From: Candidatus Aenigmatarchaeota archaeon
GTDB taxonomy: Archaea > Aenigmatarchaeota > Aenigmatarchaeia > CG10238-14 > SCSR01
Reading direction: 5' to 3'
Length of the DNA: 64,000 bases
Assembly (NCBI GenBank): GCA_038999725.1
Contig: JAWBWS010000001.1
Span: 193,713-257,712 of the forward strand
The notes under the pieces are model-generated. The model worked only from the letters and a program-made list of their open reading frames with translations. It searched no databases and had not been told where the DNA came from. Below, in pieces: positions 4,626-49,174 of the stretch. The translations under genes and the position numbers were made by a program. How positions within the stretch are numbered: the stretch's first letter is position 1; the number at the start of each line of letters is the position of its first letter.

Positions 4626-4790
4626 TGCAGGGGGTGGGATTCGAACCCACGAACGGACTAACCGATCAGGTAACTAATACTCTCATCATCCATAACTCAG
4701 GGCTTAAGTCTGGAGAGCATCTTAAGCTCACGCGAATATTGTTTTAAACAATATTCTCTGACGCCTTTGACCAGACTTGGCTACCCCTGC
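4626..4790 (-). tRNA. tRNA-Leu(TAA) with two introns (4728-4757 at ~30/31; 4672-4720 at 37/38)
   Basis: Acceptor GCAGGGG/CCCCTGC, T-arm GTGGG TTCGAAT CCCAC, long variable arm; removing both inserts gives TCAGG-CTTAAGA-CCTGA. Confidence 0.88.
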
Positions 4791-7302: not shown

Positions 7303-7400
7303 TGGACCGGCCGGGATTCGAACCCGGAGCCTCTTCATAGCAGTTAAACTCATGCCTTTTCCACAATTAAGGAAGCGATCTACCATTGATCTACCGGCCC
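7303..7400 (-). tRNA. tRNA-Ala(GGC) with two non-canonical introns (7357-7368 at 33/34; 7337-7350 at 39/40)
   Basis: Acceptor GGGCCGG/CCGGTCC (G3:U70); spliced anticodon arm CTTCC-TTGGCAT-GGAAG; both inserts have BHB-type geometry. Confidence 0.87.
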
Positions 7401-28070: not shown

Positions 28071-29348
28071 CTATTTCGCTTTAACTACATCCAAGCAAAT
28101 TCCTGCAGCTACAGTCATTCCCATATCTCTTATGGCAAATCTCGCCAATTCAGGAAAATCTGCTTGCCTTTCTATAACCATTGGCTTTGTTGGAACAACC
28201 CTAATCTTTGCAGCATCTCCAGTCTTAATGAAGTCTGGGTGCTCCTGAACCACCGCCCCAGTTCTTGGATCAATCTTTGCAATTATCTCTTCTATTCTAC
28301 AAGCAACACTAGCAGTGTGACAATGGAATACAGGTGTATAACCAGGACTTATCACACTAGGATGTTGCAAAACAATTATTTGAGCAATAAACTCCTTTGC
28401 AACAGTTGGTGGATTGTCAGGATGTCCAGCAACATCTCCTCTTCTCAACTGCTCTTTTGCTATACCACGAACATTAAAACCAATATTGTCTCCAGGCTTG
28501 GCTTCCGGAATCTGTTTGTGGAAAATTTCTATTGATTTAACTTCACCTTTGACCCCTGCTGGTTCAAATACAAGGGTATCATTGACTCTAAGTATACCAG
28601 TTTCAACTCTACCTACAGGAACGGTACCAACTCCAGAGATTGAATACACATCCTGAATTGGTATTCTCAACGGCTTGTTTATAGGTTTTTCCGGCTCTTT
28701 TATTACTGCATCCAATGTCTCAACAAGTGTTCCACCTTTGTACCAAGGCATGTTGTCAGATTTCTTGACAATATTGTCTCCATAATAAGCTGAAACAGGA
28801 ACAAATGGAATTTCTTCTACTTTGAAGCCAATTGTCTTGAAAAGCTTTATAGCTTCTTCTTTAACTTCATTAAATCTTTTTTCATCGTAATTCACAGTGT
28901 CCATCTTGTTTACTGCTACAATTATTTGATTAACTCCAAGAACCTTTAACAGCCAAGCATGTTCTTTTGTTTGTTCTTGTATACCTTCTCCAGTTTTCCC
29001 TGAAATAACGAATATTGCAGCATCTGCTTGGCTTGCTCCAGTTATCATGTTCTTAACGAAATCTCTATGCCCAGGACAGTCTATAATGGTGAAGAACCAT
29101 TTCTGAGTTTCAAAGGGTCTGTGCATAATATCAATTGTAAGGCCCCTTTCTCTCTCCTCTTTTACAGTATCCATGATAAAGGCAAATTCAAAAGTTTCCT
29201 TCTTAAGTTCAGTCGCAAGTTCTTTCAACTTTCTCAATTCTTCTTCTCTTATAGCTCCACTATCATAAAGCAATCTGCCTATCAAAGTGGATTTCCCTGC
29301 ATCTACATGACCAGCTGTCATTAGGTTAATATTTGGCTTCGCGGGCAT
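28071..29348 (-). CDS. tuf: Elongation factor 1-alpha
   Basis: [37 protein letters not shown]. Confidence 0.97.
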
Positions 29349-29393: not shown

Positions 29394-31619
29394 TTATGTC
29401 TCTGGTTTTGGTACATGTTCAGGAAGACCTTTCCTCTTCCTTATTGCAAGAATAACATCATCTCTAAGGTCTGAGGGAAGCTTTTCGAAAACTGTTTCAA
29501 CCAAGCTGTAGAAACCACGGCCAGATGTTGCAGATTTTAAGCTTGCGTCAAAACCAAACATGTCACTCACGGGCATCTTTGCTAGAACAATGCTTGCTCC
29601 CCTTTCTTCCCTCATATCAAGTATTTGTCCTCTTCTATTTTCAACCTCTCTTATTACTTCACCAAACAAATCTGATGGTACGTCTATTCTTATTACTTGT
29701 TTTGGTTCAAGCAAAGCTGGCTCTGCACGAAGGATACCTTCCATTATGGCATGCCTAACTGCGGGGATTATCTGTCCAGGACCACGGTGAACAGGGTCTT
29801 CGTGCAGCTCAGCATCAACAAGCTTTACCTTTATTTTTGTGCAAGGTTCTTTTGCCAAGGGGCCTTCATCCATCACATTTCTAAAAGCCTCTTTAACCAT
29901 CTCTATTACTTCATTCATGAACTGAATTCCCTTTGTCATATCGATGAGAACATTTTTATTGTGAATGACAATTATGTTCTTTGCTTCATCGTAATCCATC
30001 CCAAATTTTGAAATCTTTTTAAACATTTCTGTATGTTTGCCTCTAAGTTCTTCTTGGCTTGGGATTTCTCCATCAAGCATAGCCCTATAAACACCATCTT
30101 CTAAGGGTTCGACAACTATGAAAAATCTATTGTGTTTATTTGGAGATTTGCCCTCAATTTGAGGAGAAGTTTTAAAAACAGTTTCTCGGTAAACAACTAT
30201 GGGCTTACTCATCTCTACATCAATTCCCATTTCTTTCAATTTATTCTCAACTTTTGCTTCCAAATGGAGCTCACCAAGACCAGAAACAAGATATTCCCCA
30301 GTTTCTTGATTGATTTTAACTTGAAGAACAGCATCTTCCTTCCCTATTCTCTTTAAAGCATCAACAAGCTTTGGCAGTTCCATCATATTTTTTGGCTCTA
30401 TGGCTTTAGTAACTACCGGCTCGAAAAGATGCTTTATTTCTTCAAAAGGTTCAATAATGGCATCTGGCTCACAAATGGTCTCACCAGTGAATGCATCAGG
30501 AGTTCCCACTATTGCAGCAATGTTACCTGCCGTAACTTCTTCTACAGGTATTCTTAAAATACCTTTGTATACAGCAACTTGCTGTATTTTTTCTTGTTTA
30601 TGCAACCCAATCAAGTAAACGTCTTTACCCTTAAAAACTTTTCCAGAAAAAATCCTAACCGTTGCAACAAATCCCACATGAGGATCAGGCACAACCTTTG
30701 TAACAATAGCAGCAAGCTTCCCATTTGAATCACAAGCCGACATTTGTTTTCCAATTTCTGATTCCAAATCACCTTTCCAAATTTTTGAGAGTCTATACTT
30801 TTGAGCTTCTAAAGGATTAGGCAAATGCTTTATTATCATATCAAGAACAACTTGATGCAAAGGCGCTTTTTTCGATAATTCATCCTCCTTTCCTGCTAAA
30901 ATCAACTCTATGATATCCTTAAAGGTTATCCCAGTTTTTTTCATGTAAGGAATGGAGATGGCCCATCTTTTTGTTGCAGAACCAAAAGCCACGCTACCCT
31001 CCGCAACATTTACAAGCCATTTATCCTTAAATTCTGGAGGAGCGTACTTTTGAATTAAAATGTTTACATCCCTAATAATTTCTTCAAATCTTTTTTGTAT
31101 GTCTGCTGGTGATAATTTTAACTCTTTTATTAGCCTATCAGTTTTATTAATGAAAAGAACTGGTTTAACATATTCTCTTAGAGCTTGCCTAAAGACTGTT
31201 TCTGTTTGTGGCATTATTCCCTCAACAGCGCAAACCAAAACTATTGTTCCATCCACAGCACGCATAGCTCTTGTAACATCCCCGCCAAATTATGGCGAAT
31301 TTACTTCGTATCCACATGGCCGGGGGTGTCAACAAGATTAATCAAAAAGTCCTTGCCCTCGTATTCATGAACCATGCTTACATTTGCTCCATAGATTGTA
31401 AGCTGGCGTCTGCGTTCCTGTTCATCAAACCAAGTGAACATGACTTTCGGCTTTAAATTTGCCGGCCATTTCTTCAGCTAACATTCCTGCTCCTGCCATC
31501 AAATTGTCTGTGAGGGTAGTTTTCCCATGGTGGACATGAGAGCTTGTAGCTACATTGCGAATTCTCGTTGGGTCTCGCATAACCTCTTTAATCCTTTCTA
31601 TCATTTCTTTCTTAGGCAA
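29394..31619 (-). CDS. fusA: Elongation factor 2, three exons: 31619-31459, 31445-31310, 31289-29394 (730 aa after splicing)
   Basis: Exons of 161+136+1896 nt give 731 codons; spliced protein reads HVHHGKTT...[15 protein letters not shown]...[19 protein letters not shown]...NKTD...[12 protein letters not shown]7-EF2-EF1a synteny. Confidence 0.92.
31290..31309 (-). other. EF-2 mRNA intron 2 (20 nt, BHB)
   Basis: GCCAT GTGG AT|A CGAA GTAAA TTCG CCAT AA|T TTGGC; splits GHVD/FGG and carries an in-frame TAA. Confidence 0.85.
31446..31458 (-). other. EF-2 mRNA intron 1 (13 nt, BHB)
   Basis: ATGGC CGGC AA|A TTTAAA GCCG AA|A GTCAT; retention shifts the frame to a TGA at 31425. Confidence 0.85.
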
Positions 31620-31786
31620 TTATTCACCTCCCTTCAATTGTTTTAAATTAGATTTAAACCCCAGAGTTTATAAGGGTTAATGATTACAAGCTTTAATATC
31701 TTAATTTTTTCTAAAAAAGTTAATATCAATCTTACGGTTTTCTCACTTCTATTTAATTTTAATTGAATATTCTCACAGTCTACCAT

Positions 31787-32386
31787 TTATCTTGCTCCCT
31801 CCGCTTCCCTTTCTATTCTTTCTTTTTCCTTTATTGCCTCACTTTTGCTAGCATCATTGTTATAAGCAGCAACAATTTCATTGACCAAAGCATCGACCAT
31901 GTTTTCTTTTTTTCCAAAAGCTTTCCTATAGGCTGCCTGGACTATGTTTCTCAAAGCCAGATCAACTCTCCTTTGCGGACTTGTTACTACAGCTCTTCTA
32001 ACAATAATTCCACCAAGTTGATAAGAGGTGATTTCTTCTCTCAAAGCAGCGTTTTCTATTGCCCCTACCAAAACAGCTATAGGATTCTTCCCAGTCAACC
32101 TTTCTATTTTTTCAAAGGCTTCTTTCACAATTTTATAGTGTGTGAAAGTTTTGTCTACAGCTCTACCAGAGGTTAAAACATGTTTTTTTCCCCTGTGTCC
32201 CGGGACTCTCAATTTATTTATAAACCTCTCCACCACATTCATCTTTGATTTGTGGAATTGTTGTTGTGTATATTTTCCATCTGTCCTGGGTATGGCAACA
32301 GGGTGAAGATTTATATATTTTTTAAGACCAGGATCTTTCACCTCTATTCCTTCGAAAGACCATTTACCAAACAATTTTATCTCCAT
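31787..32386 (-). CDS. rps7: 30S ribosomal protein S7
   Basis: KLFGKWSF...VKDPGL...AIENAALREE...SPQRRVDLALR. Confidence 0.96.
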   Translation of the reverse strand: MEIKLFGKWSFEGIEVKDPGLKKYINLHPVAIPRTDGKYTQQQFHKSKMNVVERFINKLRVPGHRGKKHVLTSGRAVDKTFTHYKIVKEAFEKIERLTGKNPIAVLVGAIENAALREEITSYQLGGIIVRRAVVTSPQRRVDLALRNIVQAAYRKAFGKKENMVDALVNEIVAAYNNDASKSEAIKEKERIEREAEGAR

Positions 32387-32392
32387 ATAAAA

Positions 32393-32824
32393 TTACCTTG
32401 TTGGTTTTTGTTTCTTTCCTGACAAAATTTCACTCAAAGCAACACCATTAACTGCAATAACTTTATATTTAATCCCCCACATCGAACCCTTCGGACCACC
32501 TTGAGCGCCACCAATGCTTTCTATCAAAACTTCATCATGTTCGTTAATTATATCTATAGCGCCTTCACCAGGAACATGGGCTGTAACTTGAACATTGTTT
32601 TTTATTAATTGCACTCTTACTGCCTTTATAAGACCAGAAGCCGGTTTTCTTTGTTCAACAGCTCGCTTCTCGATGACAATTCCTCTAGCTTGGGGTGCTC
32701 CCTCAAGGGGGTCTTCTTTCCACAGCTGCAATATTCTTCTCTTGTGGTGAATATCCTTCCATTTGAACTTTTTTCTCACCCTTTTAAGTCTCCTTGCTGA
32801 AAATTCTCCAGGCATTTTTCTCAC
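32393..32824 (-). CDS. rps12: 30S ribosomal protein S12
   Basis: [13 protein letters not shown]...VRVQLIKN...INEHDEV. Confidence 0.96.
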
Positions 32825-48429: not shown

Positions 48430-48618
48430 AAGACCACCAAAATTCTTTTGTATTTATAAATAATTTTGTTGATATTCAAGAATAAGGAAAGGAGTTTAGG
48501 ATAGTGTTTGACACTCACCCATCATTTTAACCTAAAAAATCATTTATCGATTTAAATTTAAATACTTTTGTACCAGGTGAAAAATGTATGAATATCTAAC
48601 TTCAATTAAAAAATGAAT

Positions 48619-48715
48619 AGCCCCGTGGTGTAGCGGTCAAGCACACGAATTTGGTGGAAGGCTCTGGCCGCTAGGGTGAAACCTCGGGACGCCAGTTCGA
48701 ATCTGGCCGGGGCTA
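48619..48715 (+). tRNA. tRNA-Gln(CTG) with two short introns (~48649-48659 in the anticodon stem; 48668-48680 at 37/38)
   Basis: A1:U72 acceptor AGCCCCG/CGGGGCT; spliced arm CGAGG-CTCTGGA-CCTCG; first intron boundary ambiguous by 1 nt. Confidence 0.82.
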
Positions 48716-49174
48716 TAAAATTTCTTCTACTCTAAAACTTCTCTCACAATACCAGCATTTTAATTTCAACGGCTCCCTTCTTTGAATAAGAAATTTTGTG
48801 ATAATTGGTTCATTGCTATTTGTTATACAGTTTGAATTCGGGCATTTAACAATCCCTTCTAATATTTCTGGTAAAATAACTTTTCTTTTTTCTACAACTT
48901 CCCAATCTCTAATAATGTTTATGGTGGCATTGGGAGCAATTAAAGCTATTTTATTTGTTTCATCTTTTGTCAGTTCTCTATTTTCAATTTTTACAATATC
49001 TTTCTTTCCCAATTTTTTGCTAGAGGCATTTATGAGTATAACCACAGTTTCATTGCTACTAGAATCAAACTTAAGTATATCAACAACTTTCAAACTCTTA
49101 CCAGCTGGGATATGGTCTATTACAGTCCCATTTTTAATTTTTCTTACCAACAATTCTTCTTCCTTCATCCACAC
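48713..49174 (-). CDS. pyrI: Aspartate carbamoyltransferase regulatory chain
   Basis: IKNGTVIDHIPAG, KKDIVKIE, CPNSNCIT...CWYCE. Confidence 0.96.
   Translation of the reverse strand: MWMKEEELLVRKIKNGTVIDHIPAGKSLKVVDILKFDSSSNETVVILINASSKKLGKKDIVKIENRELTKDETNKIALIAPNATINIIRDWEVVEKRKVILPEILEGIVKCPNSNCITNSNEPIITKFLIQRREPLKLKCWYCERSFRVEEIL

Follow-up and report, generated by a model that had tools for sequence, protein, structure and literature searches.

How does an archaeon make elongation factor 2 (EF-2), an essential translation GTPase, from a gene that does not stay in one reading frame? The question is raised by a stretch of 64,000 nucleotides (nt) from a Candidatus Aenigmatarchaeota archaeon (assembly GCA_038999725.1, contig JAWBWS010000001.1, positions 193,713 to 257,712 of the forward strand), called the window hereafter, in which the aEF-2 (fusA) gene is interrupted by inserts of 13 and 20 nt. 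The source genome, recovered from a hot-spring metagenome, measures 730 kb in 9 contigs and is 93% complete. An original prediction, made from the letters of the window alone, held that both inserts are bulge-helix-bulge (BHB) micro-introns, removed from the messenger RNA (mRNA) by the tRNA splicing endonuclease EndA and the ligase RtcB. This central claim is backed here by the structure of the inserts, the reading frame, the enzymes that the genome encodes, an independent assembly and 12 more genomes with covarying helices. We consider it very likely that the two inserts are archaeal BHB introns in a protein-coding transcript and that splicing by EndA and RtcB would restore EF-2.

The gene lies on the minus strand in a str-type operon that consists of the genes for S12 (32393-32824), S7 (31787-32386), EF-2 and EF-1alpha (28071-29348). 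It appears as three colinear open reading frames (ORFs) in two frames, with 64 (31425-31619), 46 (31301-31441) and 623 amino acids (29394-31265), which match positions 2-37, 47-81 and 90-187 of the Pfam profile GTP_EFTU. Since they cover successive positions of this profile, they are consecutive pieces of one G domain. Deletion of 31446-31458 together with 31290-31309 gave a frame of 2193 nt coding for 730 amino acids without any internal stop, whereas removal of insert 1 alone led to a stop after 101 amino acids and removal of insert 2 alone to a stop after 64. The coordinates and strings quoted in the original prediction are as written in the sequence, and its statements that the gene without both inserts encodes 730 amino acids and that keeping either insert ends translation agree with these translations. 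Cutting after the second bulge base, as had been proposed, restores the frame exactly in silico, and the predicted junctions rebuild the peptides ..AGK-VMF.. and ..DTPGHVD-FGGDV... Alignment of the spliced protein with intact EF-2 from relatives needs no gaps; its identity with the genus-mate proteins is about 90%, G1-G3 are intact, and the third exon is open throughout. When the gene was compared by blastn with that of an intron-less genus-mate, a 20-nt gap was placed exactly at insert 2, and a 13-nt gap 5 nt away from the predicted insert 1, inside the alignment ambiguity. A tblastn comparison of the source genome (G000) with the genus-mate G007 read straight through EF-2, because the two inserts together (13 + 20 = 33 nt) keep the frame. 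The features are collected in Table 1.

Table 1. Features of the interrupted EF-2 gene, in window positions, and tRNA genes used for calibration, in contig positions of the source genome
Feature	Position	Strand	Remarks
EF-2 (aEF-2/fusA) gene, three exons and two putative micro-introns	29394..31619	-	sole EF-2 found in genome
Shine-Dalgarno GGAGGTGA before TTG start (31617-31619)	31624..31631	-	same layout in relatives
Exon 1, 161 nt	31459..31619	-	G1/P-loop, to ..EEMAGK
Putative intron 1, 13 nt, phase 2	31446..31458	-	relaxed bulge-helix-loop
Splice motif 1	31440..31469	-	5-bp exon/exon outer helix, 4-bp helix, 9-nt loop (5' cut), 3-nt bulge (3' cut)
Exon 2, 136 nt	31310..31445	-	VMFTWFDEQ...DTPGHVD, contains G2/G3
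Putative intron 2, 20 nt, phase 0	31290..31309	-	canonical BHB, 4-bp inner hairpin
Splice motif 2 (hBHBh')	31284..31320	-	outer helix, 4-bp helix, two 3-nt bulges, inner 4-bp stem with 5-nt loop
Exon 3, 1896 nt including TAA stop	29394..31289	-	domains II-V
tRNA gene for calibration, anticodon UUU	C5:707-818		
tRNA gene for calibration, anticodon UUG	C1:67026-67137		

When stretches of 43 and 50 nt that surround the inserts were folded as RNA and their energies compared with those of shuffled sequences, the proposed structures of both motifs came out as minimum free energy (MFE) and centroid folds. Motif 2 is a canonical hBHBh' structure (MFE -19.5 kcal/mol, z -2.94). Motif 1 (MFE -10.1 kcal/mol, z -1.95) has no inner helix, and its 5' cut therefore lies in the loop, which makes it a bulge-helix-loop (BHL) of the relaxed type. 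The original prediction had drawn both inserts with a 4-bp helix and two 3-nt bulges; this description is right for insert 2, and for insert 1 the helix stands but there is one bulge and a 9-nt loop instead of two bulges. The section of PMC5829648 on intron motifs recognises the relaxed archaeal forms hBH, HBh' and BHL beside the canonical hBHBh'. In each motif the 4-bp helix pairs the last bases of the upstream exon with the 3' part of the intron, and the outer helix is an exon/exon pairing, as exemplified by motif 2, where the codons for GH..FG pair as GCCAT/TTGGC. Being supplied by the exons, the outer helix may define which insertion sites are usable. The chance of an equally good geometry at a fixed place and length, estimated from all 1.46 million positions on both strands of the genome, was 1.6e-4 for motif 1 and 2.3e-5 for motif 2.

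Both motifs are laid out like the anticodon arm of a tRNA with an intron at 37/38. Two tRNA genes of the genome itself yield canonical 7-nt anticodon loops if they are processed by the rule used for the motifs, with a stem of 5 bp, a helix of 4 bp and cuts behind the second unpaired base of either side. This clean calibration refers to 2 of 13 listed tRNAs, most intron positions given by ARAGORN in this genome being unreliable.

The genome contains one EndA gene, coding for 188 amino acids with N- and C-terminal endonuclease domains (94 bits against PF01974, with an additional match to PF02778), and one uninterrupted RtcB gene (548 bits). EndA shows its highest similarity to PDB 5x89 and to 1a79, the homotetrameric enzyme of M. 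jannaschii; encoded by a single short gene, it resembles the alpha4 type. When compared with 1a79, it contains an insertion of 6 residues immediately ahead of a conserved His-containing stretch. Loop-bearing alpha4 enzymes from DPANN with many disrupted tRNA genes are described in the relevant part of PMC5829648, and the insertion is a candidate for their specificity loop. In a profile search of the genome a single EF-2 was found; a second intact fusA elsewhere, which the original prediction had named as a finding that would speak against it, did not turn up at this level of completeness.

The stretch is present in seven DNA runs from two hot-spring metagenome studies. Contigs from the second study cover 31176-31552 (run X4) and 31100-31315 (run X5), each with 0 differences and 0 gaps with respect to the window. 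Both inserts are therefore contained in an independent assembly, which answers the question of an assembly error that had accompanied the original prediction.

We searched with the aEF-2 profile first in 60 relatives and then in the whole order, comprising 117 genomes, 110 of them with an EF-2 match. Among the first 60 relatives, EF-2 was uninterrupted in all seven genus-mates and in pieces in four other genomes; once these four genes were read in three frames, every break proved to be a short insert with the same geometry. Interrupted EF-2 genes were found in 13 of the 110 genomes, with 1 to 5 inserts each, so that the proposed comparison of fusA among relatives added 12 genomes of the order whose inserts are of the same kind. 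The resulting catalogue comprises 33 inserts, 13-39 nt long and distributed over 12 sites, 32 from the order and one from a locus titled as Hadarchaeota (L120). Five inserts are found in the gene of G021, four in that of G072 and at least four in that of G091. The site of intron 2 (..GHVD/FGGD..) is also occupied in G017, G055, G074, G077 and G091, and that of intron 1 (..AGK/V..) in G091, by a 14-nt insert with the helix CGGT/ACTG. In-frame lengths are seen in 11 of the 33 inserts, and every in-frame insert that was read or screened contains a stop codon; a frame-keeping length is therefore no rescue, and removal is needed in these cases too. The insert outside the order (L120:1236-1265) is an example: it is 30 nt long, in frame, contains a stop, lies between ..AHVD and HGKT.. 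of EF-2 and has a perfect 4-bp helix (GTCG/CGAC) with 3-nt bulges.

Exactly at the junction, a 4/4-paired helix is present in all 33 inserts, each of which also has at least 3 outer or at least 3 inner pairs; this figure is partly due to construction, as the scan of newly flagged genomes demanded the 4/4 helix. When helix halves were combined across sites, 77 of 968 combinations (8%) were fully paired. A check free of this circularity is given by 10 genomes in which the removal of only the catalogued inserts opens frames of at least 729 amino acids, colinear with intact EF-2. At the intron 2 site (site 99) the helix occurs as GTGG/CCAT, GTTG/CAAC and GTCG/CGAC, tracking the third base of a Val codon, and swapping partners costs a pair in 5 of 6 combinations. 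Site 28 has either CTCG/CGAG or GTCT/GGAC. Variant helix pairs, all of them 4/4 paired, were observed at sites 28, 54, 62, 75, 93 and 99, and pairing is reduced at sites 28, 32 and 99 when partners are exchanged. What is expected of archaeal BHB introns is thus present at this locus: an accepted motif form, symmetric cuts that lead to a functional frame in silico, encoded EndA and RtcB, and compensatory changes.

The 33 inserts lie within the first 130 of 730 codons. A possible cause of this 5' bias is that early stops yield harmless short peptides; alternatively, strong conservation of the 5' sequence may promote lateral spread via recombination. A donor search by nucleotide identity, in which the 5' 135 codons of EF-2 were compared with the rest of the gene, gave no sign that the 5' region of G000 came from another intron-bearing lineage.

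Some further irregularities of EF-2 were recorded in the same survey. The gene is split in G079 and G091, and we rejected this as biology, as the pieces stop at contig ends and reflect the assembly. EF-2 frames of 1057-1267 amino acids were found in G008, G036, G042, G049, G050, G053, G057, G075, G086, G109, G113 and G116; the insertion follows ..HHGK in locus L024, and in most of these genes the profile match resumes only at 24-32. We read these long frames as putative P-loop inteins beside the micro-intron sites. In two contig records of run X4 (records 7-8, window 31255-31291), a related organism diverges exactly at the 3' end of intron 2, with a loose end that resembles the site-99 intron of G074 and G077. 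Strains with different introns at one EF-2 site appear to co-occur in the sample of the second study.

Before the inserts are taken as introns, it has to be asked whether the ribosome could cope with them. In the bypass of phage T4 gene 60, matching take-off and landing codons flank a coding gap, and translational recoding of this type, by hopping or frameshifting over the inserts of an unspliced mRNA, could draw on the identical AAA triplets that flank insert 1 and on its small hairpin. Nevertheless, insert 2 has no such matching codons (GAT versus TAA), the geometry that the 33 inserts have in common is that of BHB motifs and not of bypass signals, and the helices that covary are the exon/intron 3' helices that EndA would need, so that recoding seems very unlikely. 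A decaying pseudogene, with EF-2 being lost, or provided either by a host or by a copy that the bins lack, would accord with the reliance of DPANN archaea on hosts for many functions, and a genome that is 93% complete leaves room for a second copy. This explanation is even less credible in view of an open exon of 1896 nt, a spliced protein that has kept both its similarity to genus-mates and G1-G3, and the single EF-2 found; moreover, precise inserts recur as the sole lesions in 10 fully resolved genes of other genomes, and random decay would not put 33 of 33 lesions in BHB geometry. An artefact of assembly or sequencing, for which the origin of the sequence in a metagenome-assembled genome might speak, is hardly conceivable given the identical contigs of the second study and the related inserts in 12 other genomes of the order.

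If the inserts are removed from the RNA, this might also take place by a route other than EndA and RtcB, either through another nuclease/ligase pair or by self-cleavage. An alpha4-type EndA is classically strict and its action here is predicted, which leaves some space for this option, but the geometry equals that of the genome's own tRNA introns, inserts of 13-39 nt are too small for self-splicing introns, and a scan of the window at Rfam gathering scores returned 5S rRNA and tRNAs only, with no group I or II intron or ribozyme family. We regard such a route as quite improbable. Other classes of element were rejected on simple grounds: an intein because the 13- and 20-nt inserts throw translation out of frame and into stop codons, and a group I or group II intron because the ribozyme core of these comprises hundreds of nt. 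By gene position, the inserts do not belong with the cbf5-type intron, the host gene being EF-2.

Several observations weigh against splicing by EndA and RtcB. Both inserts are missing from all seven genus-mates; they can therefore be dispensed with and are either young in evolutionary terms or mobile. Motif 1 folds only modestly better than shuffled sequences, 6 of 200 of which reach an equally good fold. According to the part of PMC5829648 that deals with enzyme types, alpha4-type EndA was long thought to cut strict BHB motifs only, and the alpha4-type look of the enzyme predicted here fits poorly with the relaxed bulge-helix-loop of insert 1. Uniform pairing across the catalogue is, as stated above, in part a product of the scan. 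In genome G105 (L074:615-640), EF-2 has a 10-nt frame break between ..DTPG and H(G)DVDF.. that no BHB accounts for; a sequencing error, recoding of another type or a very relaxed motif may lie behind it. Finally, the runs that contain the stretch comprise seven DNA runs and no RNA run.

Splicing by EndA and RtcB, which remains the reading that we prefer, would proceed as follows. After transcription of the str-type operon, the 3' part of each intron and the end of the upstream exon would form the 4-bp helix in the pre-mRNA, and the exons the outer helix, mimicking an intron-bearing anticodon arm. EndA would bind the BHB or BHL motif and cut after the second unpaired base on each side, and RtcB would join the exons to a message for the 730-amino-acid EF-2, whereas an unspliced message would yield only a peptide of 64 amino acids. 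The anatomy, the restored frame, the enzymes, the independent assembly and the conservation and covariation were established in silico; cleavage and ligation, and any regulatory use, are inferred. That the supply of EF-2 is coupled to the tRNA-splicing capacity of the cell is speculation.

Inserts of the same kind were also looked for in other genes. EF-1alpha, the next gene of the operon and likewise a conserved GTPase, served as a control: its 105 matches above the cut-off, from the same set of 117 genomes, were all free of stops. Three matches of EF-1alpha-like paralogs below the family cut-off have one internal TAA each (G027:C8:1792-3045, G036:C12:9409-10608 and G037:C18:2982-4157), which may represent further in-frame micro-introns in another translation GTPase. 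In a whole-genome blastn comparison of G000 with G007, 418 kb were aligned in 212 high-scoring segment pairs with 131 indels of at least 9 nt. Of these, 75 fell inside orthologous ORFs of at least 90 amino acids, and 11 of the 75 passed the combination of a 4/4 helix and a restored peptide. Three inserts of G000 were taken as clean BHB, two in EF-2 and one in a UppS-like gene; the other passing indels were treated as ordinary owing to their in-frame lengths and poor outer and inner helices, a matter of judgement and not of a test. The UppS-like gene lies outside the window on the minus strand and contains a 32-nt canonical BHB insert (G000:C1:95124-95155). Its match to Pfam Prenyltransf is split into positions 1-34 and 24-219, and removal of the insert restores the peptide of the genus-mate. 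The cbf5 gene of the genome is uninterrupted (TIGR00425 positions 7-319, 0 stops).

The RtcB gene of G007 has two 19-nt inserts (G007:C1:32344-32362 and 32434-32452), the first of which fits only a relaxed motif. Throughout the order, stops inside the RtcB match were found in 9 of 104 genomes, and others break near profile positions 22-50. Among ten RtcB loci that were fetched, six contain clean BHB inserts of 17-31 nt, at the three sites HFGY/GFPIGG, GIG/FD and GFD/INCG, and a strict BHB search gave no fit for the RtcB breaks of G004, G095, G011 and G089. Since rtcB of these relatives is itself interrupted, the message for the ligase would need the ligase. RtcB frames of 840-1472 amino acids suggest inteins. 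An ab initio scan of the whole genome G000 for BHB motifs combined with ORF merging showed no enrichment, with 1267 passes for the canonical cut compared with 1272-1316 when the 3' cut was shifted by 1-2 nt; such a scan lets too much through when the genome is AT-rich and is overly strict where exons are short.

Taken as tRNA-type introns in coding mRNA, the inserts are of a known kind, and what is notable concerns the host gene, the number of introns, their small size and the recurrent use of sites. Like the BHB intron of crenarchaeal cbf5, they are tRNA-type introns in a coding frame that would be restored by the tRNA splicing machinery, with patchy gain and loss among relatives, as seen for cbf5 in the part of PMC2738675 consulted. 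They differ from it in lying in EF-2 of an Aenigmatarchaeota lineage, in being two per gene here and up to five in relatives, with 13-39 nt and many, recurrently used sites, and in the presence of a single 188-amino-acid EndA instead of the hetero-oligomeric type that the title of Yoshinari 2006 ties to cbf5 splicing. The geometry is identical to that described for archaeal pre-tRNA introns in the corresponding section of PMC5829648, with the intron at 37/38 of an anticodon-arm-like fold; however, the host is an mRNA, the 'anticodon stem' is built from codons that belong to two exons, and a reading frame has to survive in the product. The 5' untranslated region (5'UTR) of Haloferax volcanii HVO_1309 provides another mRNA as a substrate of the splicing endonuclease, with proof in vivo and in vitro according to the pertinent part of PMC7714728, compared with the prediction made here; that intron lies in the untranslated leader, and its coding frame is independent of splicing (PMC7714728, same part). 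EF-2 P-loop inteins, which some twelve genomes of the order probably contain, resemble the inserts as parasitic elements in the same conserved 5' region, but they are in frame, about 480-540 amino acids long and removed from the protein, and none is found in the EF-2 of the window. A more distant likeness is that to HAC1/XBP1, where an mRNA is cut without a spliceosome at stem-loops by Ire1 and joined by a tRNA ligase (RtcB in animals) in a regulated stress switch. There, too, a frame change decides which protein is made, but the nuclease is Ire1 and not the tRNA endonuclease.

In the full-text literature searched, which excluded subscription journals and supplements, we found no description of BHB introns that interrupt EF-2 or protein genes of DPANN archaea. 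Apart from the 5'UTR of HVO_1309, only the cbf5 mRNA intron had been reported as of 2020 according to the relevant part of PMC7714728, and for pre-mRNA the passages on this topic in PMC5829648 (2018) and PMC12397907 (2025) cite only Watanabe 2002, Yoshinari 2006 and Yokobori 2009 (PMC2738675). A 2026 preprint on Asgard tRNA introns has no word on protein genes in its relevant passage. In the literature searched, as far as the part of PMC7714728 consulted reflects it, tRNA-type splicing of archaeal coding sequences thus rests on one gene, cbf5 (2002), and here an essential, highly expressed translation factor would depend on it; its gene has as many as five such putative introns in relatives, and their sites recur from genus to genus. 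Annotation pipelines would label such genes truncated or pseudogenes, which would distort completeness estimates and metabolic calls for DPANN genomes. Without any spliceosome, protein genes of archaea may contain several introns, a point relevant to the spread and persistence of introns. Introns of 13-39 nt in minihelices of 40-50 nt are compact, testable substrates for the action of an apparently alpha4-type EndA on relaxed motifs and for the competition of splicing with coupled translation.

In this lineage, micro-introns of 13-39 nt seem to form a population to which the inserts belong and which has settled again and again in the 5' part of EF-2 and in RtcB as well. We tentatively extend this, as a conjecture that we hold to be possible but rather doubtful, to a mobile population of BHB micro-introns in some archaea (Aenigmatarchaeota-like, with one Hadarchaeota-titled locus) that would land repeatedly in the most conserved 5' part of a few core genes (EF-2, RtcB and UppS), render genes multi-intronic with up to five introns per 110 codons, and place elongation and the ligase under obligate tRNA-splicing control, perhaps with a checkpoint, similar to HAC1/XBP1, by which EF-2 output would follow EndA/RtcB activity.

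Two minor observations concern introns in RNA genes. The window contains tRNA genes at 4626-4790 (-), 7303-7400 (-) and 48618-48716 (+), whose lengths of 165, 98 and 99 nt imply at least one intron each; with introns allowed, ARAGORN assigns inserts to the majority of the genome's tRNA genes, many of them at unreliable positions. A region of G007 (C5:50200-55800) is 87-96% similar to G000:C4:65500-73900 and has inserts of 32-348 nt; it is probably the rRNA operon, and some of the inserts have long-stem BHB-like boundaries and are probably rRNA introns.

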